A stretch of DNA of 64,000 bases from Bacteroides sp. (lineage in GTDB: Bacteria > Bacteroidota > Bacteroidia > Bacteroidales > Muribaculaceae), in assembly GCA_014802385.1 (NCBI GenBank), contig JAAVCJ010000025.1, forward strand, positions 40,159 through 104,158, written 5' to 3'. The notes under the pieces were generated by a model. It did not search any database, was not told the origin of the DNA, and saw nothing but the letters and a program-made list of their open reading frames with translations. This document shows, piece by piece, positions 21,966 through 37,780 of the stretch (the first letter of the stretch is position 1; every line of letters begins with the position of its first letter). The translations under genes and the position numbers were made by a program.

Positions 21966-21988
21966 AAAAAAAATCAGGCTCACGGCTC
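21966..21988 (-). promoter_or_regulatory. leader motif AGAGCCGTGAGCC followed by U8, upstream of the tail fibre gene
   Basis: Minus strand reads AGAGCCGTGAGCCTGATTTTTTTTGAACTGATG. The motif proper is 21977-21988. Confidence 0.5.
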
Positions 21989-22151
21989 TGAAAAAAATAC
22001 TGCTTAAACTTGCAAAATACCCCGCCCTATACTACCTTTGCACACATCTTGTCGTGCTCTTGAAGAGGAGCTGACGGTGAATTAGACTTTTTCCCTCACA
22101 CACACCACCACCCACATCGGGTAGTGTAGAGTAGGGCAGAAGTCTATTTTT

Positions 22152-23144
22152 TTACACCGTCAGGTACTCGGTAAACCAGCGCTCATCCCCGTCATCGTCC
22201 AATCCCTCCGCTGTCTTCAACACCACCACATTCGACTGGAAATAAGCCACATTCGACACCCTCCTATCACCCTCATATATCGCCAGCCCATAAGTCAGCC
22301 GTCCACTCTTACCCGCCACACACGGTATTATGTAGTTACTGTCCGGCGCCTTCGTCGCCTCCACCACAATACGCCCCGACCTCTTCATCTCATTTCGTCG
22401 CCAGCCCACAATCTCCTCAAACGGCAACACACCCCCCTGTGAAAATACGCTCACGAGCCGCCCGTCATCACCCACCTCTAACATCATATTCTCGTCCGTC
22501 ACATGCCACCTCTTCACCTCCGACACCACCCCCCTGCGATTACGCTTACGGCCACGCCTCAGCAGCGCCACACGCCTCTCCCTCGTTAACGCCTCCGACA
22601 TGTTCACAAACAGCGACTCACCATCCGTACTCAGCCTCAGCTCCACCGCCTCCACCTCCTTCGTGTCAAAATCACACAGCGACGGCCGGCTCACATGTAT
22701 CGTCAGCGTCACCACCACACAATCCATCACACGCCCATCCTGCCGCCTGTAATAATCCCTCTCATCAACCTCAGCGATAACCTCAGGTATACCCACAATC
22801 CTGCACCGCTTATAGTCATCATACAGCGTCACCGTCTTGCACCGCTTCACATCACCCCCCTTCAGCCGCTCCCTCACAGCCTTATTCCACGCCCTGATCT
22901 TCGAGTTCGCATTTACCAGATCCTTGTTTCGCGCCTCGATAAGAAACTTCACCGAGTAGTCAAACACATCATCAACCGTCCTCGCGTCCACATGCTCCCC
23001 CTCCTCCTCAATATACGTCGACACATCACGCTTCTTCTCCGGCGCCCCAAACCGCCTGTCACCGCTCACATACACAAACCCCCACCTCTTGTAGAAATCC
23101 ACAACCTCACCCCCCTCAATCTTAACCCTGCAACTAATCATCAC
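22152..23144 (-). CDS. hypothetical tail-associated protein (distal tail protein candidate, by position)
   Basis: 330-aa ORF immediately upstream of the tail fibre gene. Confidence 0.5.
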   Translation of the reverse strand: MMISCRVKIEGGEVVDFYKRWGFVYVSGDRRFGAPEKKRDVSTYIEEEGEHVDARTVDDVFDYSVKFLIEARNKDLVNANSKIRAWNKAVRERLKGGDVKRCKTVTLYDDYKRCRIVGIPEVIAEVDERDYYRRQDGRVMDCVVVTLTIHVSRPSLCDFDTKEVEAVELRLSTDGESLFVNMSEALTRERRVALLRRGRKRNRRGVVSEVKRWHVTDENMMLEVGDDGRLVSVFSQGGVLPFEEIVGWRRNEMKRSGRIVVEATKAPDSNYIIPCVAGKSGRLTYGLAIYEGDRRVSNVAYFQSNVVVLKTAEGLDDDGDERWFTEYLTV

Positions 23145-23505
23145 AACACGGTCTATTCTTCAACTCACACGAGTCACACACATGGTTATTCTTATCATAC
23201 GCCAGCACCGGGCACCTCGACGTGTCACCCTCACAGTCATACGCCTCCTTCACCGCCTTCACCTTATGCTCATACTTCGCCTCCAGCCGCCTGTAGTCAG
23301 CCTCCTTATCCTGCAACATCTGGTCACGCCGCTGCAACATCTGGTCACACCGCTCAATGTGCGCATTCTGAATATCAATCACCTGCTGCACATTATCAAG
23401 AATATCACGCTCCTTCTTCTGCTTCGTCCTGTACGCATTCGTCACCCAGCCGATAATCAGCATCAGCACCGGCACCACAAGCTCAAAAATCAGCCTTTCC
23501 GTCAT
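23134..23505 (-). CDS. N-terminally anchored coiled-coil protein with C-terminal Cys cluster
   Basis: 123 aa. TM segment LIFELVVPVLMLIIGWV, then a charged helix, then CEGDTSRC...CDSC...CC. Confidence 0.5.
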   Translation of the reverse strand: MTERLIFELVVPVLMLIIGWVTNAYRTKQKKERDILDNVQQVIDIQNAHIERCDQMLQRRDQMLQDKEADYRRLEAKYEHKVKAVKEAYDCEGDTSRCPVLAYDKNNHVCDSCELKNRPCCDD

Positions 23506-24062
23506 ATCAACCCATTTTTATACACATTGAACACCACCCACCCGTTATCCACCGCACACACCTCATTCTCCCCGAACACCTCCACCGGCACCCTCACCGC
23601 GCCCCCGTTCAGGTGCCCCTCCGTGCAGGGACGCCGGGATTCATCACGTCCGCCGCGAAAACGGGAATCGCGCATCGTGCCCATCCCCGACGGCTCCACA
23701 CCCTCAATCCTCAGCCTGCACCCGTTCGCTATGTACAGCATCGGTATTATAGCCCTCCCGACATTCAGACCCACCCTGACAGTTCCACTGCAATTGTGCA
23801 GCACATACGCCTGCCGCTCATTAAGCACCTCCCCATCAAAAACCCTGTCCACAAACACACCCCTGTCCTCCTCATCAGCAAAAAAATCCCTCAGCACCTG
23901 TAGCGTAGGGAAATCACGCTCCAGACACCAGTCCGGGTTCGCCACATAATACTCCACCATCGCCCCCCTGTCAGCCGAGCCAAGCATCTGCCTGTACCCG
24001 TCAGCACAGATACCCTTGGCATGAGCCGTGTTTATAAGCTTCTCTTTCAGACCATCGTTCAT
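23502..24062 (-). CDS. hypothetical protein
   Basis: 186-aa ORF coupled to both neighbours. Confidence 0.55.
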   Translation of the reverse strand: MNDGLKEKLINTAHAKGICADGYRQMLGSADRGAMVEYYVANPDWCLERDFPTLQVLRDFFADEEDRGVFVDRVFDGEVLNERQAYVLHNCSGTVRVGLNVGRAIIPMLYIANGCRLRIEGVEPSGMGTMRDSRFRGGRDESRRPCTEGHLNGGAVRVPVEVFGENEVCAVDNGWVVFNVYKNGLI

Positions 24063-24556
24063 CGATTCATTCGTTTAATTAACCATATCACAGCGACACA
24101 GACAGCCACCGCCAATCCCCCCATAGCAATACCCCCCAAATCCATTTTAGACCGCTCCCACTGCGACAGCTCCCGCTCAACAGGGTAGGGGAGACGGATA
24201 GAGTCATTCTTGACTGATGACAGCTTAGTACGCAACTCGTTGATTACATTCTCCTGCTGTTTAACCTTACTTTCAAGTTCTTTTTCGCGGTTGGTCGAAC
24301 GGTAAACGATGCGCTCGCGGTCATGACGGGCAGTATCACCGTTTTCTCTCAGCACCAACGTTTCTTTCTCTCGGTCAAACAGCGAGTCAGAGCATGTTTC
24401 CTTTTCGCGTCTTGACTCAAAGAGCCTCAGCAACCGATTGTATATAGCCGTTGTGTCAACCTCGCGATACTCCGTCCCCACCGACTCCACCGGCACATAC
24501 TTTGTCGGAGCACAGCCCACAAGCACAAGCAATATGACTATATAAATAAACCTCAT
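24059..24556 (-). CDS. u-spanin-like lysis protein (lipoprotein signal plus C-terminal TM)
   Basis: The ATG at 24556 overlaps the endolysin stop (ATGA). Lipobox ILLVLVGC at the N-terminus, C-terminal TM GGIAMGGLAVAVCVAVIWLI followed by KRMNR. Confidence 0.5.
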   Translation of the reverse strand: MRFIYIVILLVLVGCAPTKYVPVESVGTEYREVDTTAIYNRLLRLFESRREKETCSDSLFDREKETLVLRENGDTARHDRERIVYRSTNREKELESKVKQQENVINELRTKLSSVKNDSIRLPYPVERELSQWERSKMDLGGIAMGGLAVAVCVAVIWLIKRMNR

Positions 24557-24954
24557 AGCTTCAAAATCTGACCACGGTTCACCCCCCCCCGTTTGTGGCT
24601 GACGTGAATCCACGAGAACCCCTTCTCATCAATCAACTGGTCAAACGGCAATTTCATGTCGATAGCAAGCTGAAAAAGCCGCGCATTATCCACCTTATTC
24701 CCCGTCGTTATATCAGCCGCCTCACCCACCGTGTGCTGACTCGTCGCCACACCACCCACCAGCCTGTTCAGCTCCCCGTTCCTATAGCCGCTCGTCACCT
24801 GTATCGGATGCCCCCACGCCTCCCTCAGCGGGTCAAGCACATTATCCACCAGCGCCGCCACATTCTTTTTGGCCGGTTCAGGCATCCTGTTGTCAATCGC
24901 ATAGCGAGTCCCGGTCTCGCTCCTCTCAAATTCACTAAAACTAAAGTATTTCAT
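24553..24954 (-). CDS. peptidase M15 (VanY/L-alanyl-D-glutamate peptidase-type) endolysin
   Basis: 133 aa. SGYRNGELNRLVGGVATSQHTVGEAADI supplies the zinc ligands of M15 peptidases. A G9 run lies in the sense strand at 24582-24590. Confidence 0.8.
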   Translation of the reverse strand: MKYFSFSEFERSETGTRYAIDNRMPEPAKKNVAALVDNVLDPLREAWGHPIQVTSGYRNGELNRLVGGVATSQHTVGEAADITTGNKVDNARLFQLAIDMKLPFDQLIDEKGFSWIHVSHKRGGVNRGQILKL

Positions 24955-24969
24955 AACCTATTAATTACA

Positions 24970-25254
24970 TTAATTCCTCGTCAACCTCCAGGTTCTCGGC
25001 ATGAACCTCATAAAACTCCTCACACAATAATACACCCTCCGTTTCGGCCTGGGCATCGGCGAACGGCTCAGCACATTCCTCACATTCTCCTTACGCTTCC
25101 CGAAGTACTCCGCCAAGTCGTCGGCCGTCCCCTCCACAGCCACCTCCCTCACAATCGAGTCATGAATCGACCTCAGCTGCTCAGGCGTGCAACGGTCATT
25201 CATCACCTCCCATTTCATGTAGTCAAGTATGTCTATAATTACCTGTTTGATCAT
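24970..25254 (-). CDS. hypothetical protein
   Basis: ATG at 25254 (MIKQVIIDIL...). The longer track ORF would run into the upstream hairpin/U8. Confidence 0.5.
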   Translation of the reverse strand: MIKQVIIDILDYMKWEVMNDRCTPEQLRSIHDSIVREVAVEGTADDLAEYFGKRKENVRNVLSRSPMPRPKRRVYYCVRSFMRFMPRTWRLTRN

Positions 25255-25262
25255 AGCGAAAC

Positions 25263-25310
25263 AAAAAAAAGAGCCACACACGAACTTAATCGCATGTGGC
25301 TCACGGCTCT
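25263..25310 (-). promoter_or_regulatory. leader motif AGAGCCGTGAGCC plus hairpin GAGCCACA/TGTGGCTC plus U8 (terminator or attenuator)
   Basis: Minus strand reads AAGAGCCGTGAGCCACATGCGATTAAGTTCGTGTGTGGCTCTTTTTTTT, then 7 nt, then ATG. Confidence 0.6.
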
Positions 25311-25319
25311 TTATATTTG

Positions 25320-25327
25320 CAAATGTA
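25320..25327 (-). promoter_or_regulatory. Bacteroidota-type -7 promoter box TACATTTG
   Basis: Matches TAnnTTTG, 10 nt upstream of the leader motif. A CTTG lies 20 nt further upstream. Confidence 0.4.
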
Positions 25328-25497
25328 GTTTATTTCAATGAATTGTGCAAGGGTTATTTAAGCATTACTCTAATAAATCGCCACCACAGCAACAACCCGT
25401 CCGTTTCCGGCCCCGGGCGCTCGCGCCCATAATTCATAGCCTGAGAAACGCGAGCCTCAAAGCCCCTTCCCATTGCAGACAAGCACCACATTGCACC

Positions 25498-28400
25498 TCA
25501 GTCAATCGTCACATGCAGCGAATGCACCGACTGACTACCGCGAGGCCTTATCACCCTCCTCAGCTCCGCCACCGCGTTCTCAGCCGCCACCGCCGCCCTA
25601 CGGCACTCCACAACCGTGTCAGCCGTGTTTCGCTGAATAGCCATGTAGCTATCCATCGCCTGCTGCTGCCAGTCAGTCCACCCCCCCGACACTGCCCCCG
25701 ACGAGGGTAGGGCAGACACCTTACCACCCTCCATCAGCTGCCTTATCGCCGCCACGTTCACCGCCATGCCCGGCAAGTGGCTGACATAATAATTCTGAGC
25801 ATTCAGCGCCGCCGTGTTAGCATTCATCTCCTCACTCGTCGCCCCCGCCACCTCACGCTTTATACCCGTATACTCCCCGTCCGACTCACCCAACAGCGCC
25901 TTCATGTCATAGCCCCGCGCCTCAAGCGACTTCCACAACACCTCCATGCCATTGTTAGCCGCCGCCAGAGCCGAGTCCATACCCTTCATTATCGCATCAA
26001 TCGCACCCTCCACATCATTGTCGGCAAGCATCTTGTCCATATCCTGCCACATCGGAGTCAGAGCATTCTCAATCACCCTCGCCGCAGCACCCTCCACAAT
26101 CATATTCTTCACCAAGTCAGCATAGTCCTCCTTGATAGCCGTGAACGTATCACTCATCGACGCCCTCGCATCAATCCACGACTGCGCCATCTGCCGCGCG
26201 GCATCAGCCCTGCTCGACCCCGTGAAGTGAGCCGTCAGCTCAGCCTGCATATCCTTAATATTGTCAGCTGCCTCACGCGCTGCCTCCTCATACTCCTTGA
26301 TCTTATCCTTATCCGCCTTTTTCCCCTTCGACCGCTCCGCCTCAGCCTGCTTCATGTAAGCCTCCTGCTGCGCCTGGAGGTTTCTGAGCTGCTGGTCATA
26401 GTTATCGATATACTGAGCGCCGAACACATTCTCAGCCGCCTTTTCAAGTCTGCCGTAGGTGTATTCGAGTTGGTCTAACAGCTCCTTCTGACGCTCAATC
26501 TCCTTATTCGCCTTGCGGACTTTATTTCCGCTTATCCACGACCCTATCGCCGCGCCGACAGCGAGCACTCCGGCAGCAATCGCTATATACGGATTAGACT
26601 CAGCAATAGCATTAAACAATGCTTGTGCAGTCGTAACCACACCGATAGCCTTACTCATCGTCTGCAATGACCCTATTGCAGCATCAAACACTAAACCTGC
26701 CGCCGAGTCCTCCGATATACCCAGTAAATCTTTCACATCACCGAGAGTGTTTGCAAGCTGGTCAGCCGCCGATGCAACATTTTGCAAATCTTTGAAAAAC
26801 TTATTAGTCGCCTTCTTCTGCTTGTCTTGCTGTTCAGTGACCTTAGCCTCAGCCTCCTTAACCTTTTCAGCCGCCTTGGCCTTTGCTTGTTCCGCATTAG
26901 TTACAGCCTGTTCTGCATTGTTAAGCCGTAACTCAGCCGCGAGGATTTGCTCCTCGGTTGCAAGGCCATCTTTCTTCAGTAACAATAATGACGTTTCAGC
27001 ATCAAGTCGCTCCTCCTCAGCCATACTTATGTCAGCATCAAGCTTCGGGAGTTGCTCCTCATACTCAGCTTGTGCTGTGTTCAACTCAGCTCTCGCCGTT
27101 TTTAGGTCACGCAGGGCAGCCATGTAGTCGCGGACACTCTGCACCATATCGTTGCCGAAACCGCGCCCGCTTATCTGCTCGTCTATGTCCTCCATAGCCT
27201 TGACAAGCGTCTTCATATTCTCCGGCGAAAGGTCTTTATTGGTATCTATCAGCTTACGCATTTCCTCGCGCAGACGTTTGAGAGCGGCAGTCGAAGTGTT
27301 ATCAAGATTCTCAAAAATCTTGATGTAATCCTCACTCTTGGTAAACTCCTCAAAGTTCACTTTAGCCACGTCCTTGTCCTGCTTTGTACGACTTTGTGCA
27401 GCGAGACGGTCTTTCTCATCTTGCGGCAGATTGCTCTTGTAAATCTCCGCTCTGCGCTGTGTCTCGCGGTTGATTATGTCTGTACGCTGCTCCTCATAGT
27501 CCTTTGCTTTGGCAAGCTCCTTTTCCCAAGTAAGGATATTTGCGGCGGCGGTCTTTTGACCCTCCGAGACTATATTCTGTGCCGTGTCGCGGTTTTTCTC
27601 TATTATGTCGGCCTGATACTTCTCGTATATTTCTGCGAGTTTTTCATAATTGATACGCTGATTTGTTGTGTCAATAGCCGCGTCAATGTCTGCTGTTATC
27701 TGCATGTCAATACCGGCGTCGCCCGAAGTGAACGACTGCCTAATCTGCTCCACAATATTATCAAACAACCCCTCACCCGTATCACCATACACACTCATCG
27801 TCACACTCGCCGCCAAATCCACATCACCCGTCTGGCTCAGAATCTTATCATAGAACTCCCTTGCGGTCTTGGTGCGCGATATGCGGTCGGAGAGTTCTTT
27901 GAGCTTCTTGTCAACCATCTCAGTCTCATTCTTCAGCCAACGCGCGTCCATACTCTTACCCAGCGTAATCTGTGCCCTCCGCGCCACCACCGTGTTAATC
28001 TTACCCAGCGCATTCCAAATCTCCGTCTGATACCTGTTCAGCTCCTTGATCGTCTTCGGCGCGTCAAACTTCAGCCCGAACTCCCCAGCCAGCTCATTCA
28101 GATACTCCAGCTCCTGCCTGTAAGTCTTATCTATATACTCCGACGCCCTCACCGACCCCACACGCTTCTCCAGCTCCTCATACTTGTCAAGCATCGACAC
28201 CAGCGCCCGCTCCATCTCCTGCAACGTCTGCACCCTCCCGTCACCACGGCCACCGCCATTTTGCACCGCCGGCAAGCGATTCAGAAACGCCTCCAGCACA
28301 GCCGCCTCCAACTTCGCCTCCTTGATAGTCTCCTTCGTCTTCTCGATACTCTCAGGCGACACAACACCCACACCAACCCCCTTCCCATAATTCTCCACCA

Positions 28401-31227
28401 CAACATTCTCCTGTTGTATGTAAGCCTTCCTCTCCTCAAGCCACTCCTGCAACTTCTTCCTGTACGAGTCAAGATCATCACCCCCCTGCGCCAGAAACCG
28501 CTTCATCTTGTCCATATTGCCCCCCATCGCCCCAGTGATCTGCTCCAGAGCATCCCTCATTGTGTTCACAAAGCCCCCCTGCGGCACCCATTTGACATAC
28601 TCCCTCTGCAACTTTGCCGTCGCCAGCTTAGCCGACTCAATCGTCTTCGACGCCCCCTTGTCAAGCTCATCATTAACAGCATCCCAGTTAATACGCATCT
28701 GCTCCCCATCCATCATCGTCATCGTCGATATGTCAAACGTCAGCCCCTCCCTCTCAAACACCTCCTGCAAGAACTTCACATACTCCCTCACCTTTACACG
28801 CTCAACCTCTTGGTCATACTCAAACGTACCCTTCTTGGCAGTTATTGGAGCATTCTTTATATTCTCAAAAACCCTCTCATACCTGTTCGCATAGCTCAGC
28901 AAATCCGCATTAAGCGCCCTCATCGTCAGCTCCGACTCCTCATCAATCCTCGAGTAAGTTTCATGAACAGTATTATAGAGCTTCATAAAAGGAATGTAGA
29001 GATTAGACACCTTGCTTATATATGACTCATCAACGTCAAACCCCGTCACACTCTCAAGCGCCTTGGTGATAGCCTCGTCAAAACTCAGCGACGTGTCCTT
29101 CGAGAACTCCTCAAGCGCCGTCTTAATACGCTTCACATCATCAGCCGACAACTCAATCTTCTGCCACCCTTGACCCTCCTTCCTATATTGAAACTCTGCC
29201 CCCTTATTAGCATTCTCAAACTGCTTATTTATCTCCTTCAGCTTCACCCCCTGCTCCTCGATAAGCGCGTTAGCCTTATTAATCTGCAACTGCTCAGCCG
29301 CATACTCCCTTATCGCCACCGTCAACTGCTCATAATTACCCTTCATCGCCCTCAGCCTCTCTATAGTCATATCCTGCACCGGGATCATCTTACCGAACGT
29401 ATTATGCAACTCCTGCAAAGCCTCTCTCTGCTGCCGGCTCCCATCCGTCGACTCAGTTATCGTCTTCGTCAGGCGCTCAAACGTCAGTATCGACTGCTCC
29501 AGCCCCGTCCGCGCCTCCGCGTCCAGTCCCCTCAGCTTCTTCTCGAGCTCATCAGTCTTCGTCAGCACATCATACACCTTAAAACCAATCGCCGCCACCA
29601 GTGCTAACAACATCGTCAGCCAGTTGCGCGACAACGCCGTCTTCAGCTTATTCGTCGCCTTAGTCCACAGATTAGTCGACTGCGCCGCCCTACTTTCAGC
29701 AAAAGCCGCCTCAAGAGCCGCCTTTGCCGACACTCGCGAAGCTGTAGCCTGCGCCGTCCTCGCGTAAGCATTAGCTTTAATTGCATTTGAACTGTTCTGA
29801 GTCAGCGCCGCCTCCTGTTTGAGAGCAACAGCCTCCCTCTGCAAAGCCACATTATACGCATTTTGAGCCGCGGTCAACTTATTATTAGCCGCCACCCTCG
29901 CCGAGTCAATACCACCCTGCCAGGCACCCACCACCGACTTCACCTTATTAGCAGCCCAAAACGCCGCCAGAGCCGCGCCCGCCGTTCCGATGGCCGAACC
30001 AACCTCTCGCCAATTCCTCATCATCTCAGTCAGCAACTCAATCGTCCCCCTCATCGCCGCGTTGACAGTGCCGTTGTTACCGATCTGGTCATACATCACC
30101 GACGCCGCGTCACCCAGCTTAGCCCACATACCCGCCAACGTGTTACCCTGCTTCTCTTGCATATTGTAGAACATACCCCCCGCGCTCGTCATATCATCGA
30201 AAACCTCCTTGACAAGCTCAAACGATATGGCACGCTTCGACACCATATCCATCACCTGCGCCGCCGTAACCAATTCCCCGTTCATCTTCGACAACTTCGC
30301 CGCAAGTTCCTCAACGATAGGCACTCCCATCTCCGTGAACTGTCTGATCTCCGAAGCCCTCAGGTACCCCGTGGCGCGCGTCTGGCCGTAGGCAAGCACG
30401 ACGCGATCCATCGACACACCCAAGCCCACCGACACATCCGTCAGCTTCTTAGTCGTCTCAAACAACTCATCAACCCCAATCTTATACGCCGCCAGTTGCT
30501 TCGTGTACTTCGTCAAGTCAAGAATCGACACCGGCGACTTCAACGCGAAATTCTTAATCTCCGAGAACAACTGGTTAGCCCGCTGCTGATCCTGAATAAT
30601 CGCCCCCAGCGACACACGCTGCAACTCAAACTCCGCCGTAACCGACCTTACCGAAGTAAGAAACATCTTTACCTTCTGAAGACCCGCATACACCGCCAAC
30701 CGCTTCGTCAGCCTCCAAATCAAACTATCCTGAGACTGATAAGCCCTGTTCAGACCCTGCGTCGCCGCCGCCCCCCTCGCCGCCGCCCGGGCATCCCTCT
30801 CCCTCGCCGCCGCCAAGTTATACTCAGCCCTCGCCGCCCTTTGAGCCGCCAACGCTGACTGCGCCTTCGCTCGCTCCTCATTCACCCTCACACGCGACGC
30901 GTCAACGGCCCCACGAGTCGACACCCGAGAGTATTTCTGCACAGCCTCCAACGCCTTGGCAAGTGTCCTCAGCTCCCCCGCCAGCTCCTTGATCGCCCTC
31001 TTAGTCTCCGGCGTCACGGGCTCCAGCTTCAGCTCCGCCAACCGCTTCTTCACCGCATCAAGACTATCAAGTTTTGACGTGTCAAGGTTCAACTTAACAT
31101 TTATAGGGCGTTTTGCGATAAGTTTTTCTAATCTTTCCGCATACTTCTTATCCCAATCATCACCCGCGCCCTTAACCGCCGCCTCCAGATCAAACCCTAT
31201 CGGGAATATCAATTTGTCATCAGCCAT
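25498..31227 (-). CDS. tail tape measure protein
   Basis: 1909 aa and largely alpha-helical. The conserved tape-measure core reads ...LKSPVSILDLTKYTKQLAAYKIG...VGLGVSMDRVVLAYGQTRATGYLRASEIRQFTEMGVP. It lies downstream of the chaperone pair. Confidence 0.9.
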   Translation of the reverse strand: MADDKLIFPIGFDLEAAVKGAGDDWDKKYAERLEKLIAKRPINVKLNLDTSKLDSLDAVKKRLAELKLEPVTPETKRAIKELAGELRTLAKALEAVQKYSRVSTRGAVDASRVRVNEERAKAQSALAAQRAARAEYNLAAARERDARAAARGAAATQGLNRAYQSQDSLIWRLTKRLAVYAGLQKVKMFLTSVRSVTAEFELQRVSLGAIIQDQQRANQLFSEIKNFALKSPVSILDLTKYTKQLAAYKIGVDELFETTKKLTDVSVGLGVSMDRVVLAYGQTRATGYLRASEIRQFTEMGVPIVEELAAKLSKMNGELVTAAQVMDMVSKRAISFELVKEVFDDMTSAGGMFYNMQEKQGNTLAGMWAKLGDAASVMYDQIGNNGTVNAAMRGTIELLTEMMRNWREVGSAIGTAGAALAAFWAANKVKSVVGAWQGGIDSARVAANNKLTAAQNAYNVALQREAVALKQEAALTQNSSNAIKANAYARTAQATASRVSAKAALEAAFAESRAAQSTNLWTKATNKLKTALSRNWLTMLLALVAAIGFKVYDVLTKTDELEKKLRGLDAEARTGLEQSILTFERLTKTITESTDGSRQQREALQELHNTFGKMIPVQDMTIERLRAMKGNYEQLTVAIREYAAEQLQINKANALIEEQGVKLKEINKQFENANKGAEFQYRKEGQGWQKIELSADDVKRIKTALEEFSKDTSLSFDEAITKALESVTGFDVDESYISKVSNLYIPFMKLYNTVHETYSRIDEESELTMRALNADLLSYANRYERVFENIKNAPITAKKGTFEYDQEVERVKVREYVKFLQEVFEREGLTFDISTMTMMDGEQMRINWDAVNDELDKGASKTIESAKLATAKLQREYVKWVPQGGFVNTMRDALEQITGAMGGNMDKMKRFLAQGGDDLDSYRKKLQEWLEERKAYIQQENVVVENYGKGVGVGVVSPESIEKTKETIKEAKLEAAVLEAFLNRLPAVQNGGGRGDGRVQTLQEMERALVSMLDKYEELEKRVGSVRASEYIDKTYRQELEYLNELAGEFGLKFDAPKTIKELNRYQTEIWNALGKINTVVARRAQITLGKSMDARWLKNETEMVDKKLKELSDRISRTKTAREFYDKILSQTGDVDLAASVTMSVYGDTGEGLFDNIVEQIRQSFTSGDAGIDMQITADIDAAIDTTNQRINYEKLAEIYEKYQADIIEKNRDTAQNIVSEGQKTAAANILTWEKELAKAKDYEEQRTDIINRETQRRAEIYKSNLPQDEKDRLAAQSRTKQDKDVAKVNFEEFTKSEDYIKIFENLDNTSTAALKRLREEMRKLIDTNKDLSPENMKTLVKAMEDIDEQISGRGFGNDMVQSVRDYMAALRDLKTARAELNTAQAEYEEQLPKLDADISMAEEERLDAETSLLLLKKDGLATEEQILAAELRLNNAEQAVTNAEQAKAKAAEKVKEAEAKVTEQQDKQKKATNKFFKDLQNVASAADQLANTLGDVKDLLGISEDSAAGLVFDAAIGSLQTMSKAIGVVTTAQALFNAIAESNPYIAIAAGVLAVGAAIGSWISGNKVRKANKEIERQKELLDQLEYTYGRLEKAAENVFGAQYIDNYDQQLRNLQAQQEAYMKQAEAERSKGKKADKDKIKEYEEAAREAADNIKDMQAELTAHFTGSSRADAARQMAQSWIDARASMSDTFTAIKEDYADLVKNMIVEGAAARVIENALTPMWQDMDKMLADNDVEGAIDAIMKGMDSALAAANNGMEVLWKSLEARGYDMKALLGESDGEYTGIKREVAGATSEEMNANTAALNAQNYYVSHLPGMAVNVAAIRQLMEGGKVSALPSSGAVSGGWTDWQQQAMDSYMAIQRNTADTVVECRRAAVAAENAVAELRRVIRPRGSQSVHSLHVTID

Positions 31228-32236: not shown

Positions 32237-32265
32237 TGTAGGGACGCGAATTTTCGCGTCCGCCG
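32237..32265. repeat. 29-bp conserved hairpin element, copy 1 (TGTAGGGACGCGAATTTTCGCGTCCGCCG)
   Basis: Stem GGACGCG/CGCGTCC with loop AATTTT. Located between the major tail and chaperone genes. Confidence 0.85.
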
Positions 32266-32295
32266 ACATAAAGGAATCGTGCATCGTGTCAATTG

Positions 32296-32877: not shown

Positions 32878-32908
32878 TGTTATATGGTTTTAGTAGTTTA
32901 TAATTCAG

Positions 32909-33340: not shown

Positions 33341-33846
33341 GCTTCCGTGGGTGTTATGGGTTGTAACCCGGTTATCACATTCTGAAACAGCACCTCACCC
33401 AGCGAGTCAAAGAACCCCACACCACGCCCCCACTTAGAGCCTTGTGCGTTGATTTTGTAGGCGTAGGAAACCGTAGAGAAAAGCACAATCCATATCCCTT
33501 TTGCGAATTGTGAGGTTGCCGCTTGTAATGCGAGTCGAAGATTGATAGAGCCGTCAATGCCCACCTCGCCTCGATTGGTCTGCTGCTCAACAGCAATAGC
33601 CGTCGGTATATACGAACTCAAACGCCCGTCAATGTAAACTCCGACACCCGTAGCATCATGCAGATTACCCGTAAACACCGGGAACTGTCCCGTCCCCGAT
33701 GGAGGCATAAAACCACCGTCAATGTACGCCACAAGCCGCTCAGCCACGCCGCGCAGCATTGCTTCAAGTTTAGCCTTTTCGCGCTCTGCAAAGTCTTTAA
33801 GACCCACCTTGAAAACCTTGCTGTTATGTGTCGTGTGGTCTGCCAT
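33337..33846 (-). CDS. neck / head-tail joining protein candidate
   Basis: 169-aa ORF; assigned by position only. Confidence 0.45.
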   Translation of the reverse strand: MADHTTHNSKVFKVGLKDFAEREKAKLEAMLRGVAERLVAYIDGGFMPPSGTGQFPVFTGNLHDATGVGVYIDGRLSSYIPTAIAVEQQTNRGEVGIDGSINLRLALQAATSQFAKGIWIVLFSTVSYAYKINAQGSKWGRGVGFFDSLGEVLFQNVITGLQPITPTEA

Positions 33847-33868
33847 TAGAGTATGTTTATACTTAGTC

Positions 33869-34195
33869 TTACTTCTCCGTTGATTGCTTAATCTCTATCT
33901 CAGTAACCCAGTCGCCCGTGAGGTCAAGTCCGAGGTCGTTAGCGAGTTTGACAACACCCTCGCGCCTGCGTCCGAGTTGCGTAGTCACTGCGATATTGTC
34001 ATTCTCCTGCACCATCACCGCCTTTGGCAGATACACCACGTCATTGTGCGAGATAATGCTCAGTGAGGTCTGACCTCCCGGCTGAAAGTCGCAAATGCCG
34101 TCGTAAATCTCCTCCTCAATGGGATTGTCCCACTCGTCATACTCGCCCGAAGATCGCGTAATCCGGCAATGGTCTCGGTAACTCAAATCGCTCAT
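33869..34195 (-). CDS. head-closure / head-tail adaptor candidate
   Basis: 108-aa ORF; assigned by position only. Confidence 0.45.
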   Translation of the reverse strand: MSDLSYRDHCRITRSSGEYDEWDNPIEEEIYDGICDFQPGGQTSLSIISHNDVVYLPKAVMVQENDNIAVTTQLGRRREGVVKLANDLGLDLTGDWVTEIEIKQSTEK

Positions 34196-34277
34196 GTCCG
34201 CTGTCTATTAACTATCCATGACGCTTTGTGTAGCAAAGTCATCGACCTTTGGTCGCTTTGCAACACAAAGAAATCGC

Positions 34278-34700
34278 TCATAACCGTCTCCTCCTCAAGC
34301 TTGATGCGTCAAACATACCGCCAGTGTCGGCCTCGCTCTCGTCAATGTCCGCGCCCAACTCCCTGCGCAACTTGTCGCCAAGCGCACGGAAAGCCTCGCG
34401 GTCTTTGGTCGTCAGCGGATAGCCGCCGATTGATATTTGACGGTTCCCTCGTTTCTCGCTCTTGGTGCCGCCCGTGATAGCCGCTGACATAGAGTAATAG
34501 ACCGTAGAGAGAGCATAGTTAAGCCCCTTCAGATAAAAGTCATCGTCCAGATAATCCTCAACCTCGTCCGACAGACTCACAGCACGCAGCTTCACAGGCC
34601 TCGCAAACACCGGCGACAGCACCGCCGCCTCCAGCACACTCGCCTCTATCTGCGTCCCGATACCCTGAAACTGACCCCTAAGCCAATTCTCTACCGTCAT
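34278..34700 (-). CDS. head-tail connector candidate
   Basis: 140-aa ORF immediately downstream of the capsid gene. Confidence 0.45.
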   Translation of the reverse strand: MTVENWLRGQFQGIGTQIEASVLEAAVLSPVFARPVKLRAVSLSDEVEDYLDDDFYLKGLNYALSTVYYSMSAAITGGTKSEKRGNRQISIGGYPLTTKDREAFRALGDKLRRELGADIDESEADTGGMFDASSLRRRRL

Positions 34701-34713
34701 ACTCCGTCATCGT

Positions 34714-36021
34714 TTAGTCTATCGATACCGCCCTTGATTTGCTCGACTTCGAGGCAGGCGCGCTCTGAACCGACGCCCCTGCGACAGTTTCAGTGAAGGC
34801 CACGTTGTAAACCTGACTCGGAACAGTATAGACAGGCAGACAGGTAAGTTCTGAACGCCATGTCGCCACTTTTTCGCGGGGTTCATACCAATACTCGATG
34901 ATACCACGACCACCGAAGATGTCGGTGCTTATCACAGCCGATGTGTCGGGACGGTTGGGTGCAACGGGAATAATGGAAATGATGTTACCCGACGGACGCA
35001 GGAGCATACGACCCTCGTCAAAGCAGTCCATTCGGTTACGTTTCAGCGAGGGTGCAGCGTCGGTCTGCTTGACCGCAACCTCATAGGCGGTGATGGCCGT
35101 TGAGAGAAGCACCTCGTCGATTTCGCAAATCTCCTTGAAGATTTCGATTTTCTGTTCGAGCTTAGACGACAGCAGCCAGTTTCGACCGTAGGCAACTGCA
35201 TTTGCATCGTTGTTGGCAACCTTGTAGAAAGAGTTGTCAAGAGCGTAGGCGATTGTCTTTGCCCAGGCAGGATGTTTAAGCAGGAGTTTGAACGACTTGG
35301 CGTTCATTTCCATAGTAATGCGGTCGTAGCTGTGATAGGGGTGATTGCGAATGTCGTAAACAAGCTGCTGGATATACTCAACGGGGTTTACGTCCTCGTT
35401 GTAAGTAATCTTGCCGTCTGCTTCAACAGTCCAGAACTTAACCGTCTTGCGGTTTTCTTCGGGAACGTGAGAGGGGAATACAAGACCCTTTACGCCACCT
35501 TTCGAGGTTCGGTCGTCAAGTTGGAAATCAAGACGCGACTTCAACTGGCCCACCATGAAGTTCACGGTATTCTTGTGTGCGTTGGGGAGTGCCGATAGCT
35601 TGTCATAGAGGAAATTCTCCAAGTCAGCATTCACCTGCGCTTGTACGTTGTTAGTGCCGGCGAACGCACTCATCATGCCATAAACCTGATGTTTCTTTTC
35701 AGTAACATCAACCTCGTCAATAGTGGTGATTGCCTTGTGGCGGGGAATTGAGCCTGTAAGTTTGTTGAACTTCACCGAGCCACCGATTGCACGAGGGTCA
35801 GAGTACATGTCAACGAATGTCGCCATAACCTCAACGTCGTTGTAGCGCTCCCACATTTCGTATGTGAACACGTCCTGCATACGACCCCATGTAGCACCGC
35901 GAATATCGAGGTTCTGATTCTCGCCTTTAGCGAATACCGTGTTATAAAACTCGGCAAAAATAGGACTTGATGTAATACCGAAGTACCCCATCAAATCACC
36001 CATGTTTCTGTAACTATTCAT
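34714..36021 (-). CDS. major capsid protein (lambda gpE-like position)
   Basis: 435-aa ORF in the order scaffold, decoration, capsid, connectors. Confidence 0.7.
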   Translation of the reverse strand: MNSYRNMGDLMGYFGITSSPIFAEFYNTVFAKGENQNLDIRGATWGRMQDVFTYEMWERYNDVEVMATFVDMYSDPRAIGGSVKFNKLTGSIPRHKAITTIDEVDVTEKKHQVYGMMSAFAGTNNVQAQVNADLENFLYDKLSALPNAHKNTVNFMVGQLKSRLDFQLDDRTSKGGVKGLVFPSHVPEENRKTVKFWTVEADGKITYNEDVNPVEYIQQLVYDIRNHPYHSYDRITMEMNAKSFKLLLKHPAWAKTIAYALDNSFYKVANNDANAVAYGRNWLLSSKLEQKIEIFKEICEIDEVLLSTAITAYEVAVKQTDAAPSLKRNRMDCFDEGRMLLRPSGNIISIIPVAPNRPDTSAVISTDIFGGRGIIEYWYEPREKVATWRSELTCLPVYTVPSQVYNVAFTETVAGASVQSAPASKSSKSRAVSID

Positions 36022-36033
36022 AATTCGATAGGG

Positions 36034-36423
36034 TTAAGAGATTGTTTCAACGGGTTCATAATCGAAGTCGATAAGCGGAAGTGCCGCTTTCTGCGCCTCG
36101 GTGACAGTCGCCGCCATAAGGTTGGCACGGATTGAACCTGAGCGCACGATTGTGAGTGTGCAACCTCCCTCTGCCATAGTCACGTCCGCACGAAGCAGAC
36201 CGTCGGGCTTGGTGGCGGTTGAGCCGATTTTGGGGGCAGTGTCGTCAGTGCTTAACTGCACGGGCGTACCGACAGGGAACTGAGTGCCTACGGGGTAAGT
36301 GTCATCGGGAAGCACTGCCACGCCTATTAGTTTGGAGTGGTCGATGTAATTCCAGATAGGCAACCTTTCGGCATGGGTTTCCGCTTCTGAGCGAGGGAAA
36401 CTGTTTCCTCCGTAATTTACCAT
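36034..36423 (-). CDS. head decoration protein candidate (gpD-like position)
   Basis: 129-aa ORF between the scaffold and capsid genes. Confidence 0.45.
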   Translation of the reverse strand: MVNYGGNSFPRSEAETHAERLPIWNYIDHSKLIGVAVLPDDTYPVGTQFPVGTPVQLSTDDTAPKIGSTATKPDGLLRADVTMAEGGCTLTIVRSGSIRANLMAATVTEAQKAALPLIDFDYEPVETIS

Positions 36424-36448
36424 GTTGTTTAATTGTTAAGGGTTAAAC

Positions 36449-37135
36449 TTAGGGTTGATTGGCAACCACACCCGCTGCTCGTTCCTCTTGGCGTTTAGCC
36501 ATATCAGCGAATTTCGCCGAGTGGTTATCGCCCCCTCCGTCACTCTCGAAAGGCTTTGATGTATCTACTCCTTTTTTGGCGACCGCCTTGTTGAAGTAGC
36601 CCATAGCCTTTTCTTGCAGCTGTTCCGCAGTCCATGACTTGCCGGTAGCTTCGTACATCTCGGTAGCTCGTTCCCATGCGTCAGTAGCCTCATCAGCATA
36701 CTTCTTCACATAGTCGTTGCCCTTGAATGTGGCTTCGGCTGATGCAAACGCGCTTTTTGCCGCTTGCTCGCCCTTGAACTGCGTTAGCTCATCACTAAGC
36801 GGCTTAATGGCTGCGGCTACCGCGTCAGCGATAATCTTCGCCATATCTGCCGGATTGCTCTCGGGCTTGGGTGGTTGATTGCCATTGAGCATTGCTTCAA
36901 GTTCCGCCTTTTCGCCCTCTAAGCCCTTGATTTTGGCATTGAGTTCGGTGCGTACTTTGTCCGCTGCACTCTGTTCTGCTTTGAGCATCGGTTCTGCCCC
37001 CTTGACAAAGGTTGCTATCTGCTCGTCGCTTGTGATGAAAGTTTCTCCGAACGTGGCTACCCTTTCAAAAGCCCCATCGCTTAGACCGAGTTGTTTATAC
37101 CCCTCTTTCAGCGCGTTCAATAGTTTTTGCTTCAT
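36449..37135 (-). CDS. capsid scaffolding protein
   Basis: 228 aa, Ala/Lys/Glu-rich and helical. First gene of the head operon. Confidence 0.6.
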   Translation of the reverse strand: MKQKLLNALKEGYKQLGLSDGAFERVATFGETFITSDEQIATFVKGAEPMLKAEQSAADKVRTELNAKIKGLEGEKAELEAMLNGNQPPKPESNPADMAKIIADAVAAAIKPLSDELTQFKGEQAAKSAFASAEATFKGNDYVKKYADEATDAWERATEMYEATGKSWTAEQLQEKAMGYFNKAVAKKGVDTSKPFESDGGGDNHSAKFADMAKRQEERAAGVVANQP

Positions 37136-37146
37136 AAATTTTTGCT

Positions 37147-37175
37147 TGTAGGGACGCGAATTTTCGCGTCCGCCG
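37147..37175. repeat. 29-bp conserved hairpin element, copy 2
   Basis: Identical 29-mer, 12 nt upstream of the scaffold start. Confidence 0.85.
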
Positions 37176-37179
37176 GGTT

Positions 37180-37225
37180 AAAAAAAAGAGCCACACCCCA
37201 CTACTGGGATATGGCTCATGGCTCT
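37180..37225 (-). promoter_or_regulatory. leader motif AGAGCCATGAGCC plus hairpin GAGCCA/TGGCTC plus U8 (also the likely terminator of tRNA-Met)
   Basis: Minus strand reads AAGAGCCATGAGCCATATCCCAGTAGTGGGGTGTGGCTCTTTTTTTT, starting 16 nt after the tRNA. Confidence 0.6.
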
Positions 37226-37241
37226 TAGAAAATATGTTTTG

Positions 37242-37313
37242 TGGCGCAGGGCGGACTCGAACCGCCGACCTTTGGGATATGAACCCAACGAGCTACCACT
37301 GCTCTACCGCGCT
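37242..37313 (-). tRNA. tRNA-Met (anticodon CAT) with initiator-type features
   Basis: Cloverleaf AGCGCGG-TA-GAGC-AGTGGTA-GCTC-G-TTGGG-TTCATAT-CCCAA-AGGTC-GGCGG-TTCGAGT-CCGCC-CTGCGCC-A. It has G29-31:C39-41, A11:U24 and an unpaired 1:72 (A.C). Confidence 0.85.
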
Positions 37314-37359
37314 ATATCATTTCCCCGCCCCCCGGTCAACCATACATTGATAATAATGC

Positions 37360-37398
37360 GAGAGCCGGTCTTCCTCACGGATAATCGGCTCTCGGCTC
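37360..37398 (-). promoter_or_regulatory. GAGCCGAGAGCC motif plus hairpin GAGAGCCG/CGGCTCTC upstream of tRNA-Met
   Basis: Minus strand reads GAGCCGAGAGCCGATTATCCGTGAGGAAGACCGGCTCTC. Confidence 0.5.
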
Positions 37399-37708
37399 AT
37401 TGTACTAATCCTTAGAAATTGTTACGTCAGAAAATTAAATCATTCTTATCACTTACTTATGGTTCTCTCTCCTATGTCATTCATCGGTCAAGGCTTATAC
37501 TCTCCACCTTTACAAGCACCTCACGTCTGCAAACCTTGCAGTACAAGTATAAATCACCCTTGCCAGTCACATCCTCATGCCTCGCCAGGAGCTTCCTGCG
37601 CCCTTGCTCAGCACATCGTGGACAATATATTGCTTCTTTCATGACGCAAAAATAATATACATAAATAAATTATGCAATACTTATTATATCTTTTCTATAA
37701 CTTTTTAT

Positions 37709-37716
37709 TATCTTTG
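37709..37716 (+). promoter_or_regulatory. Bacteroidota-type -7 promoter box TATCTTTG upstream of the terminase operon
   Basis: Matches TAnnTTTG within an AT-rich tract, 12 nt before the leader motif. Confidence 0.4.
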
Positions 37717-37728
37717 CGCTATATATCA

Positions 37729-37780
37729 GAGCCGAGAGCCATCTATCCCCCACATCGGGATAGGTGGCTCCTCGGCTTTT
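37729..37780 (+). promoter_or_regulatory. GAGCCGAGAGCC leader motif forming a 20-bp hairpin followed by UUUU, 47 nt before the terL ATG
   Basis: AGCCGAGAGCCATCTATCCC-CCACATC-GGGATAGGTGGCTCCTCGGCT-TTTT, with one bulge and one G.U pair. Confidence 0.6.

Follow-up and report, generated by a model that had tools for sequence, protein, structure and literature searches.

Tandem GAGCC leader elements ahead of late genes in a Bacteroides phage, and a linked zinc-ribbon gene that may open their predicted terminators

The Locus

The sequence analysed here (hereafter, the window) is 64,000 nt of Bacteroides sp. DNA (GCA_014802385.1, contig JAAVCJ010000025.1, forward-strand positions 40,159-104,158) and derives from a siphovirus-like Bacteroides phage or prophage. 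Its relevant features are collected in Table 1; promoter boxes come from a scan for TAnnTTTG in intergenic DNA.

Several of the late genes are preceded by a leader carrying the tandem repeat GAGCC-NN-GAGCC. The terL-portal operon (ATG 37827) has element (d) as its 5' leader, and the scaffold/capsid operon (ATG 37135) is preceded by element (b), a predicted terminator in its leader. The first gene after (b), at 36449-37135, matches the unannotated family phrog_5824, which also lies downstream of the element in six relatives. Element (a), ending 8 nt before the ATG at 25254, heads a lysis cassette made up of a 94-aa ORF, an M15 peptidase (24553-24954; Peptidase_M15_3, E 3e-16), and membrane proteins. 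Element (e) is placed 82 nt past the stop codon of a small zinc-ribbon gene, which we call KTR, and upstream of tRNA-Met. The same tRNA-Met arrangement recurs in relatives L001 and L002 and at the unrelated KTR locus L153.

Table 1. Late-gene leader elements and neighbouring features, in window positions
Feature	Position	Strand	Description
Element (c)	21966..21988	-	GAGCC-GU-GAGCC-UGA-U8, no stem-loop; ends 6 nt before tail-fibre ATG 21959
Element (a)	25263..25309	-	GAGCC-GU-GAGCC, 13-bp hairpin, U8; covariance model 46.1 bits
-7 box of (a), TACATTTG	25320..25327	-	10 nt upstream of motif; sequence and TAnnTTTG scan
Element (b)	37180..37224	-	GAGCC-AU-GAGCC, 13-bp hairpin, U8; covariance model 48.2 bits, E 1e-9
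tRNA-Met (CAT)	37241..37313	-	ARAGORN and Rfam; between (e) and (b)
Element (e)	37355..37398	-	GAGCC-GA-GAGCC and hairpin, no U-tract; covariance model 33.6 bits, E 4e-6
Zinc-ribbon gene (KTR)	37481..37642	-	53 aa, CxxC...CxxC; Pfam Cys_rich_KTR, PF14205
-7 box, TATTTTTG	37647..37654	-	Bacteroidetes-type; directly upstream of zinc-ribbon gene; sequence and TAnnTTTG scan
-7 box of terL promoter, TATCTTTG	37709..37716	+	Surrounding TTATTATCTTTGC block conserved in relatives
Element (d)	37729..37780	+	GAGCC-GA-GAGCC, ~21-bp hairpin, UUUU; covariance model 34 bits
Sixth copy	38233..38244	-	Antisense within terL, codons W-L-S-A-H; no hairpin

Copies of the Motif in the Window

There are six exact matches to GAGCCNNGAGCC in the window (21977, 25298, 37213, 37387, and 38233 on the minus strand and 37729 on the plus strand) against 0.07 expected, and none of 100 shuffles reaches six. 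The first-pass annotation of this DNA was thus right that the repeat exceeds chance; all five of its copies were found, intergenic and oriented with the downstream gene, but it overlooked the sixth. The latter is probably a coincidence outside the system, because in L001, the closest relative, the match is disrupted by a synonymous substitution; it is missing in the other relatives.

A covariance model run with filters off recovers exactly four full elements in the 64 kb, namely (b), (a), (d), and (e). In each of them the second GAGCC forms the hairpin base on the 5' side, and a U-tract follows three of the four hairpins. The form of an intrinsic terminator is plain at (a) and (b), where the previously described hairpins and U8 tracts have 13-bp stems with seven G-C pairs. 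It is also found at (d), whose hairpin (-38 kcal/mol) takes in the first repeat as well, stands ~47 nt upstream of the terL ATG as had been claimed, and carries compensatory changes in its outer stem in relatives L002, L004, L015, and L016.

The remaining copies match the earlier description in part. At (c) the motif and U8 do stand before the tail-fibre ATG, but the stem-loop is missing; similar hairpin-less motifs occur 7-8 nt before a homologous large tail gene in L007, L008, L010, L011, and L015. At (e) there is a hairpin upstream of tRNA-Met, but the U-tract is absent; relative L002 has a U-rich tail at the equivalent position. A terminator at every copy, as first envisaged, is therefore not what is found. 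Nor is there a promoter before every copy: (b) follows a tRNA, which does lie, as described, between (e) and (b), and (c) comes after a stop codon and lacks a promoter. The two -7 boxes that had been assigned to (a) and (d) are where they were said to be, the second 12 nt upstream of its motif. The proposed order of promoter, leader, terminator-like hairpin, and late gene is real, is kept in relatives, and is restricted to late genes, but not all copies display it.

In this window a hairpin with U-tract stands ahead of three genes or gene groups (terL, the scaffold/capsid operon, and the lysis cassette), and the GAGCC motif is absent from the ordinary terminators that close early operons (12696-12719 and 14034-14059). 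We consider it rather probable that the terL-portal, scaffold-capsid, and lysis units each start with a predicted intrinsic terminator. Around the elements, Rfam gave nothing relevant up to E 10, and only tRNAs scored above the gathering threshold.

Conservation of the Element in Other Phages

A pattern scan of IMG/VR returned at least 120 stretches from Bacteroidales-type and Firmicutes-type phages; please note that loci L018-L137 were chosen with a pattern already requiring GGCTCTTT. The module is present in hundreds of gut phages, and the element, being widespread in phages of two bacterial phyla, is not the phage-specific switch first suggested. Relatives retain the motif with a 2- or 3-nt spacer, and at loci retrieved by protein rather than by motif the spacer is 2-3 nt in 50 of the 68 GAGCC pairs lying no more than 20 nt apart. 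The genes downstream in relatives encode terminase (terL), scaffold, portal, tape measure (TMP), endolysin, and holin, the commonest family overall being phrog_194 (head scaffolding). Some lineages have repeats 16-17 nt apart or use another unit, the examples being phi-m46.1 and Flavonifractor phage Cormatin (GCGCCUGAGCC x2).

The stems are conserved as well as the repeats, and they show strong covariation. At the stem base, GGCUC is the partner of the last GAGCC in 49/49 aligned elements, and a GGCU 3' arm follows the last GAGCC in 136/154 arrays. Beyond GGCU, 678 of 816 stem positions are paired versus 396 +/- 12 with shuffled partners. In the stem alignment, counted independently, 89% of cells are paired (36-47% in slid controls), compensatory cells number 157 versus 64 +/- 7 after shuffling, and 9/14 pairs change on both sides. 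The element is a conserved structured RNA whose pairs are upheld by compensatory change across homologues. Most arrays have a U-rich tail with at least 7 T in 10 nt; since TTT was part of the scan pattern, this count carries some bias. An RBS or ATG follows within ~10-25 nt of the U-tract, and coding transcripts must therefore traverse the hairpin; start codons lie outside it, 10-50 nt beyond.

These hairpins could conceivably involve no switch at all, being strong terminators or 5' stabilising hairpins that are alike by descent or duplication and are read through in part constitutively, with the KTR linkage incidental. Hairpin and U-tract alone would account for (a) and (b), and a terminator is to be expected at the early/late boundary, where KTR is often found. 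However, the unpaired upstream repeat is kept across two phyla while stems and spacers diverge, the repeats have multiplied to 3-4 copies in some phages, elements such as (a) and (d) lie far from KTR within the genome, and the repeat corresponds to the RNA target of a remotely similar protein, Com (see below). We regard such an explanation as very unlikely.

The Zinc-Ribbon Gene and Its Likeness to Mu Com

Amid the motif cluster lies a Com-like zinc-ribbon gene, now the likely trans factor, which the first-pass annotation did not notice. Its product scores 29.0 bits against PF14205 (gathering threshold 25.5, E 9e-7); Cys_rich_KTR is a Pfam family of unknown function. Most KTR homologues carry PF14205, ~1,967 clusters at 50% identity match the profile, and some family members miss one or two cysteines. 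The AlphaFold2 model has a pLDDT of 83, and a Foldseek search with KTR gave nothing significant. The box TATTTTTG would be the promoter of a KTR/tRNA-Met unit.

The KTR gene is tightly linked to the motif across phyla. Within 138 loci, 39 of 68 KTR genes have an array on the same strand between -40 and +100 nt of their stop codon, and in 20 of those 39 the array overlaps the last KTR codons (EPKS/EPRA). In the reverse look-up, six of seven KTR proteins picked by protein search have an array and terminator within 250 nt downstream; the seventh has the variant CC-AA-GAGCC.

Aligned with Mu Com by hhalign, KTR gives a probability of 91.6% (E 8e-7) over 33 columns of the zinc-ribbon core. Both match phrog_6417 ("translational regulator"), KTR weakly (E 0.003) and Com at 3e-10, and KTR has no match to the Com-specific phrog_13819 or the Pfam Com model; the profiles point to remote similarity, not membership. 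Com binds RNA at 5'-CC(N)2-3GAG-3' (SELEX motif NGAGNNCC(N)2-3GAGNNCC), remodels the adjacent hairpin, and is a translational activator (PMC6483171). Its site is contained as the core of GAGCC(N)2-3GAGCC. The Com SELEX unit is GAG-NN-CC, not GAGCC, and the common part is the CC(N)2-3GAG core only. KTR is the candidate trans-acting factor, and the repeat is most likely its RNA docking site.

The parallel with Com and mom mRNA goes further. In each case we find a tiny CCCC zinc-finger phage protein and a CC(N)2-3GAG site, predicted for KTR, that obeys one 2-3 nt spacing rule and is placed at the 3' end of the regulator's own gene or just past it, and an adjacent hairpin is the presumed target of remodelling on binding. 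However, the hairpin opened by Com conceals the start codon of mom, so that a single gene is controlled at the level of translation, whereas the hairpin here has terminator form with a U-tract and precedes several late operons. Sequestration of the mom type is absent, with start codons outside the hairpin and terL, scaffold, and lysis genes downstream. The Pfam families also differ (Cys_rich_KTR here, Mu-like_Com for Com).

It is worthwhile considering whether KTR, like Com, acts after transcription, its binding melting or holding the 5' hairpin and so altering translation initiation or mRNA stability or processing of late genes, with any terminator role not primary. Com itself is a translational activator (PMC6483171). 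The hairpin-less copies stand where a ribosome would bind, 7-17 nt from the tail-fibre ATG on its 5' side, and (e) has no U-tract. Leader structure affects translation initiation in Bacteroidetes. Nevertheless, the start codon, together with the AGGAGG RBS in Firmicutes-type phages, is outside the hairpin and 10-25 nt past the U-tract, and the conserved form, in which 5-8 U come right after a GC-rich stem, is that of a canonical terminator. On these grounds we think a primarily post-transcriptional role unlikely.

How the Late Genes May Be Switched On

We think it fairly likely that KTR binds the nascent repeats, keeps the base of the terminator unpaired, and so lets the late genes be read through. 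KTR would be made from its own promoter, KTR and tRNA-Met lying upstream of the first motif-bearing terminator. While it is scarce, late-leader transcripts would stop at the hairpin and U-tract. Once it accumulates, it would attach to the growing transcript at the CC(N)2-3GAG core within the tandem repeat, ahead of synthesis of the 3' arm; G-A-G at the stem base would then stay unpaired, the hairpin could not close beside the U-tract, and RNA polymerase would continue into the late genes. That KTR binds RNA, that transcripts terminate at the hairpins, and that binding leads to readthrough are steps that we infer. If they are true, KTR opening terminators would be a phage developmental timer that switches late genes on.

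There is no room for a promoter between U-tract and start codon, which makes antitermination, as the first-pass annotation had proposed, the best explanation; the modes it had in mind, polymerase modification of the lambda Q or HK022 put type or action by RNA alone, fit less well. The last repeat is part of the terminator 5' arm, and occlusion of the local hairpin by an RNA-binding protein is therefore favored; it is our best reading of the mode. Since (c) and (e) are not terminators, KTR binding may have further roles.

A processive mechanism would instead have the motif, as RNA or as non-template DNA of the region transcribed first, load KTR or another factor on RNA polymerase so that later terminators are ignored too, in the way of lambda Q/N or RfaH-ops. 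At (a), (d), and many relatives the motif starts 10-12 nt past the -7 box, ~+4 to +16 of the RNA, which is the Q-type loading zone; late operons are long, and the hairpin-less copy before the 4.9-kb tail-fibre gene could be a reload site. Against this, many copies have no nearby promoter, the motif overlaps the terminator arm (needless for a processive system), and Com is an RNA-remodelling protein not known to bind polymerase (PMC6483171). In addition, Pfam and PHROG scans of the window ORFs found no Q, N, NusG-like, or sigma-like protein, which agrees with the earlier statement on Q and N, although a very divergent Q could escape these libraries. We judge processive antitermination improbable.

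Small zinc-finger late activators such as P2 Ogr exist, and the GAGCC repeats might be an operator in dsDNA, at which an Ogr/Delta-like zinc finger or a roadblock serves as late activator or repressor, the hairpins being terminators that happen to lie nearby. The fixed distance from motif to -7 box at (a) and (d) would suit this. A dimer on B-form DNA would, however, be poorly served by a 7-8 bp period with a variable 2-3 nt spacer; the motif occurs on the sense strand only, follows tRNAs and stop codons at places without a promoter, and is fused to a hairpin arm. We give a DNA operator little credence.

Comparison with Known Systems

The proposed local occlusion of a terminator by KTR shares features with several known switches. 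The lambda PR'-qut-tR' region (and the Q of phages 82 and 21) has the same succession, from constitutive-looking promoter through short leader and strong terminator to the genes for lysis and morphogenesis; the regulator gene adjoins the site, and (a) precedes the lysis cassette as tR' does. At (a) and (d) this order of promoter and terminator-like hairpin is found: a -7 box, the motif with its hairpin and U-tract 10-12 nt further on, and then the gene. Unlike the motif here, which is part of each predicted terminator and also occurs without promoters, Q binds DNA and sigma-paused polymerase and acts processively, and no homologue of it turned up in the Pfam and PHROG scans. The occurrence of the motif away from promoters counts against a Q-type DNA element with a sigma-dependent, promoter-proximal pause and processive action. 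Both HK022 put and lambda N-nut likewise use a cis leader RNA element to set terminator readthrough. However, the two specific stem-loops that make up put, and that need no protein, are lacking here (there is also no Rfam match), as are the boxA and boxB of nut, to which an arginine-rich peptide binds.

In the RNA-binding antiterminators BglG/SacY/LicT-RAT, HutP, GlpP, and ANTAR, which occlude a terminator arm, a nascent-RNA site overlaps the 5' half of the terminator and each terminator has its own site. The predicted KTR site shows this LicT/HutP-type overlap with the terminator 5' arm in the same 49/49 aligned elements and 136/154 arrays, and HutP also reads short repeated triplets with short spacers. 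The folds are unrelated (CAT-PRD, HutP hexamer, ANTAR), and LicT/HutP-type systems sense metabolites or phosphorylation, whereas a developmental timer is proposed here. Finally, B. subtilis TRAP recognises tandem GAG/UAG repeats, 2-3 nt apart, in a leader beside a terminator; in contrast, it promotes termination by blocking an antiterminator, forms an 11-mer beta-wheel, and needs 9-11 repeats.

Motif anatomy in the window

Phage genes run across the whole 64-kb window (49% G+C), and the Bacteroidetes -7 box TAnnTTTG is found at its intergenic promoters. Besides the genes in the table, it encodes a D5-type primase/helicase, a dUTPase, RusA and two DNA methylases. Of the minor features tabulated, the NAD-salvage genes are adjacent and encode a NAMPT/NAPRTase-family enzyme and a phosphoribosyltransferase-like protein, with a motif-less ordinary terminator following them, and the DUF7666 protein carries about nine tandem copies of the 8-residue Gly/Ala-rich repeat GSAAAGD[Y/S].

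Positions of the motif copies and other features in the window
Feature	Position	Strand	Genes headed or location
Motif copy (a)	25263-25309	-	Lysis cassette
Motif copy (b)	37180-37224	-	Scaffold/capsid operon
Motif copy (c)	21966-21988	-	
Motif copy (d)	37729-37780	+	terL-portal operon
Motif copy (e)	37355-37398	-	
Sixth motif copy	38233-38244	-	Antisense in terL
GAGCC-ATT-GAGCC	380-392	+	Close to tRNA-Asp
Second perfect hairpin	37150-37169	-	Between U8 of (b) and scaffold ATG
KTR gene	37481-37642	-	
tRNA-Met (CAT)	37241-37313		Between KTR and scaffold genes
Tape-measure protein	25498-31227	-	
M15 endolysin	24553-24954	-	
Large terminase (terL)	37827-39581	+	
Portal	39601-41307	+	
DUF7666 protein	1877-2683	+	
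NAD-salvage genes	10399-12689	+	
Ordinary terminator	12696-12719		End of early operon
Ordinary terminator	14034-14059		End of early operon

The pattern GAGCCNNGAGCC occurs six times in the window, against an expectation of 0.07. The first-pass annotation had listed five copies, (a) to (e), all of which are in place and co-oriented with the downstream genes, but it overlooked the sixth. That copy, an exact GAGCCGAGAGCC, is on the mRNA perfectly complementary to the terL leader motif. Since it encodes W-L-S-A-H, is lost through a synonymous substitution in the closest relative and is missing from the other relatives, it is probably a codon coincidence. We also considered small RNAs, made of promoter, hairpin and U-tract, with a GAGCC seed directed at the complementary GGCUCUCGGCUC in terL, and dropped them because the sixth copy is not conserved. 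The GAGCC-ATT-GAGCC copy, with its 3-nt spacer, has no matching hairpin or U-tract and a low covariance-model score, and is probably due to chance.

Most of the anatomy described earlier is borne out by the sequence: the 13-bp hairpins of (a) and (b), each followed by U8; the hairpin of (d), of about 21 bp, followed by UUUU and lying some 47 nt ahead of the terL ATG; the -7 boxes 10 nt and 12 nt upstream of (a) and (d), respectively; and the tRNA-Met, which sits between (e) and (b). A hairpin with a U-tract at the head of each unit is found at (a), (b) and (d), but (c) consists of the motif, UGA and U8 without a stem-loop, and (e) has a stem-loop without a U-tract. A covariance model trained on related elements and run with filters off detects four full elements in the window and no more: (b), (a), (d) and (e). 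The second perfect hairpin listed in the table, GGACGCGAAAATTCGCGTCC, has no U-tract.

Wherever a copy has a hairpin, the 5' arm opens with the five bases of the second GAGCC, whose partner GGCUC stands right ahead of the U-tract. The first GAGCC lies 2 nt further upstream, is unpaired in (a) and (b), and joins an extended stem in (d). It might have been an alternative pairing partner, as in a classical attenuator, an idea we rejected because the hairpin adjoins the U-tract under either pairing. The start codon follows 8-50 nt past the U-tract, which leaves no space for a promoter, so that transcripts coding for the late genes necessarily traverse the hairpin. The motif is absent from the ordinary terminators that end early operons. 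It is very unlikely, in our judgement, that these elements are a plain family of terminators with no switch.

Conservation and covariation

Relatives were collected from IMG/VR and GTDB as matches to terL and the tape-measure protein (TMP), at 36-83% amino-acid identity; terL relatives occur in MAGs of Bacteroidales, Muribaculaceae and Alistipes. Conservation in related phages had been set as a test of the motif, and in these relatives its positions are retained: ahead of terL it follows a conserved TTATTATCTTTGC promoter, it occurs on both sides of the tRNA, and it precedes the scaffold, TMP and tail genes. The spacer in most of them is 3 nt rather than 2 nt, and in five, like (c) in the window, a hairpin-less copy stands 7-8 nt ahead of the large tail-fibre gene. 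The terL locus itself varies: in L001 (2129-3013) an HNH endonuclease gene is inserted between the conserved leader and terL, and in L003 (1906-4659) the terL ORF is 917 aa long, with an extra N-terminal segment that resembles an intein or homing-endonuclease insertion.

An IMG/VR scan with the pattern AGAGCC-N2-3-GAGCC-N12-40-GGCTCTTT matched at least 120 stretches. Those listed include both Bacteroidales-type contexts, with -7 boxes, and Firmicutes-type contexts, with an AGGAGG ribosome site after the U-tract, and arrays of three or four repeats occur among them. For 111 elements in the listed loci, the first ORF downstream comes mainly from families of scaffold, terminase, portal, virion, tape-measure, endolysin and holin proteins. 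Of 816 stem positions in the listed loci that the search pattern left free, 678 are paired, compared with 396 +/- 12 after shuffling of the partners. Similarly, in an alignment of 49 sequences 89% of cells are paired (slid controls, only 36-47%), both sides change in 9 of the 14 pairs, and there are 157 compensatory cells against 64 +/- 7 after shuffling. That the motif acts as a double-stranded DNA operator we regard as highly improbable. The four copies around terL could also have been terminase (cos/pac) binding sites; this was rejected, as the lysis and tail genes have copies ahead of them too, and the copies are strand-specific and form parts of covarying hairpins.

Across 408 kb of loci retrieved by protein and not by motif, 26 GAGCC pairs are 2 nt apart and 24 are 3 nt apart, with all other spacings up to 20 nt at background. 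Some lineages have repeats 16-17 nt apart, or another unit such as GCGCCUGAGCC. Rfam reported only tRNAs at the gathering threshold, and only tRNAs and noise around the elements at E up to 10. Against INPHARED phages, neither the terL region (megablast) nor the window KTR protein introduced below (tblastn) gave a match. The first-pass annotation had suggested a switch that might be phage-specific; the module instead spans phages of two phyla, in Bacteroidota and Firmicutes contexts.

A zinc-ribbon protein encoded beside the motif

Just 5' of many arrays among the listed matches lies the sequence encoding the C-terminus of a small C-x2-C...C-K-x-C-K protein. In the window this candidate trans-acting factor, here called KTR, is a 53-aa zinc-ribbon protein matching Pfam Cys_rich_KTR (PF14205) above threshold, and its gene, transcribed divergently from the terL promoter, is followed directly by (e), tRNA-Met and (b). 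With an iterated profile, KTR homologues were detected in 68 of the 138 loci listed; 39 of these 68 genes have an array on the same strand at -40 to +100 nt relative to their stop codon, and in 20 of the 39 the repeats overlap the last KTR codons, read as EPKS or EPRA.

For the reverse test, seven KTR proteins were drawn from a protein search with no regard to the surrounding DNA. Six of their genes are followed within 250 nt by a GAGCC array, hairpin and U-tract, and the seventh by the variant GUGCC-AA-GAGCC and a terminator; by chance, about 0.001 such arrays would be expected in 300 nt. Those of the genes that lie in phage contexts are typically followed at once by scaffold and major capsid genes or by HNH-terS-terL. 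The family as a whole comprises about 1,967 clusters at 50% identity. A PDB sequence search with KTR and a Foldseek search with its AlphaFold2 model (pLDDT 83) gave nothing significant, the best relevant hit being the ZitP zinc finger (TM 0.51). Literature searches for the motif, Cys_rich_KTR/PF14205, zinc-ribbon or Com-like antiterminators, and Tn916 orf6 found no functional description.

The tRNA-Met (CAT) within the module is shared by relatives L001 and L002, and stands at the same place in an unrelated Firmicutes-type phage (L153, 2749-2822); tRNA-Phe replaces it in the Muribaculaceae relative L016.

Proposed mechanism and alternatives

RNA binding, termination and readthrough are inferences alike, and we think it reasonably probable that KTR opens the repeat-bearing terminators and so permits readthrough into the late genes. 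KTR would be expressed from its own promoter, together with tRNA-Met; once abundant, it would bind the repeats as the RNA leaves the polymerase and hold the terminator stem open at its base, next to the U-tract, so that transcription could continue into the packaging, head and lysis genes. Intrinsic termination demands a stem that extends to within a few nucleotides of the U-tract, and thus keeping 3-5 basal pairs open should suffice. Such occlusion would account both for the separate motif copy at every regulated terminator and for the fusion of motif and terminator arm.

Processive modification of the polymerase by a Q- or N-like factor, in line with the lambda PR'-qut-tR' and HK022 put analogies first drawn for this DNA, would fit the promoter-proximal copies (a) and (d) and the hairpin-less copy ahead of the 4.9-kb tail gene. 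It leaves the obligatory overlap of motif and terminator arm unexplained, however, and Pfam and PHROG scans of the window, concatenated ORF sets included, found no Q, N, NusG-like or sigma-like regulator, nor was any classical late regulator (Q, N, RinA/ArpU-type) evident there; we consider it improbable. Control of translation or mRNA stability, as by the phage Mu zinc-finger protein Com, a translational activator of mom, would suit (c) and (e), but is also unlikely, given that the start sites fall outside the hairpins.

Occlusion of the terminator by KTR can draw on a remote likeness to Com. The KTR family profile aligns with Com across the zinc-finger core (hhalign probability 91.6%, E 8e-7); the Com query sequence is sound, as it matches the Com PHROG end to end (E 5e-45). 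In addition, phrog_6417, "translational regulator," is common to Com and two KTR proteins. Using SELEX, EMSA and SHAPE, Nowacka et al. 2019 (PMC6483171) showed that 5'-CC(N)2-3GAG-3' is the site read by the Com zinc finger, with the bipartite consensus NGAGNNCC(N)2-3GAGNNCC; Com prefers a single-stranded or loop form, requires an accessible GA, and is thought to melt a neighbouring hairpin (PMC6483171). The exact core CC(N)2-3GAG, with the same spacer rule, is contained in GAGCC(N)2-3GAGCC, and its GAG makes up the bottom three pairs of the terminator stem. LicT/SacY-RAT and HutP follow the same antitermination logic as proposed, which would here be carried out by a Com-like protein. Both the class of mechanism, antitermination by a protein at a leader terminator, and the protein superfamily, that of Com-like zinc fingers, are already known; what appears to be undescribed is their combination, its deployment to switch on late genes, and how widely it is spread among phages of two phyla.

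Wider distribution and significance

To our knowledge, little is known of late-gene timing in phages of the dominant gut phyla. As a tentative reading, the Cys_rich_KTR family, which at 50% identity falls into about 2,000 clusters, could consist of Com-like zinc-finger RNA-binding antiterminators that, with terminator-fused tandem GAGCC operators, form a portable developmental switch timing late genes in many Bacteroidota and Firmicutes gut phages; the same gene-plus-terminator module, also present in Tn916-like elements, may there control readthrough beyond tet(O)/tet(M). If true, an uncharacterised Pfam family would gain a function, and the Com paradigm, so far one of translational control over a single gene, would come to cover the transcription of whole late regulons. 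The model is concrete and cheap to test, with a cis element of about 45 nt, a 53-aa protein and a predicted binding core, CC(N)2-3GAG; candidate RNA targets for KTR include the 5' RNA oligo AAAGAGCCGUGAGCCACAUG and full element (a). Because the module is compact and seemingly works in Bacteroidota and Firmicutes contexts, it could also be used in the engineering of gut bacteria, as an orthogonal switch for antitermination.

With a Firmicutes-type KTR as query, cultured phages were found. In one of them, Flavonifractor phage Cormatin (ON453905.1; L150 4058-4225), which should be a good experimental system, the KTR gene separates the replication genes from HNH-terS-terL and is annotated as "translational regulator." The repeat in this phage has another unit, GCGCCTGAGCC, present twice, 17 nt apart, and the second copy is again the 5' arm of a terminator.

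Streptococcus phage phi-m46.1 (FM864213.1 53531-53770; L158 2504-2740) has a canonical KTR gene (...CPVCGSKTRNKIRKDT...) directly after tet(O), and the last KTR codons with the 3' flank read GAGCC-N16-GAGCC, followed by a hairpin and U5. In Tn916-family elements, the short ORF behind tet(M) presumably has the same annotation as this KTR. Readthrough past the tet(M)-flanking ORF in these elements controls the transfer genes, and a module right behind tet(O) in a Streptococcus element hints at a tie to the tetracycline-inducible readthrough of Tn916-family conjugative transposons.

Finally, locus L151 (2501-2800) holds a KTR gene, a four-copy GAGCC array and a scaffold-gene fragment amid bacterial genes (histidine kinase, Ntox50 toxin, S8 peptidase), and is apparently a decayed prophage remnant that has kept the module.
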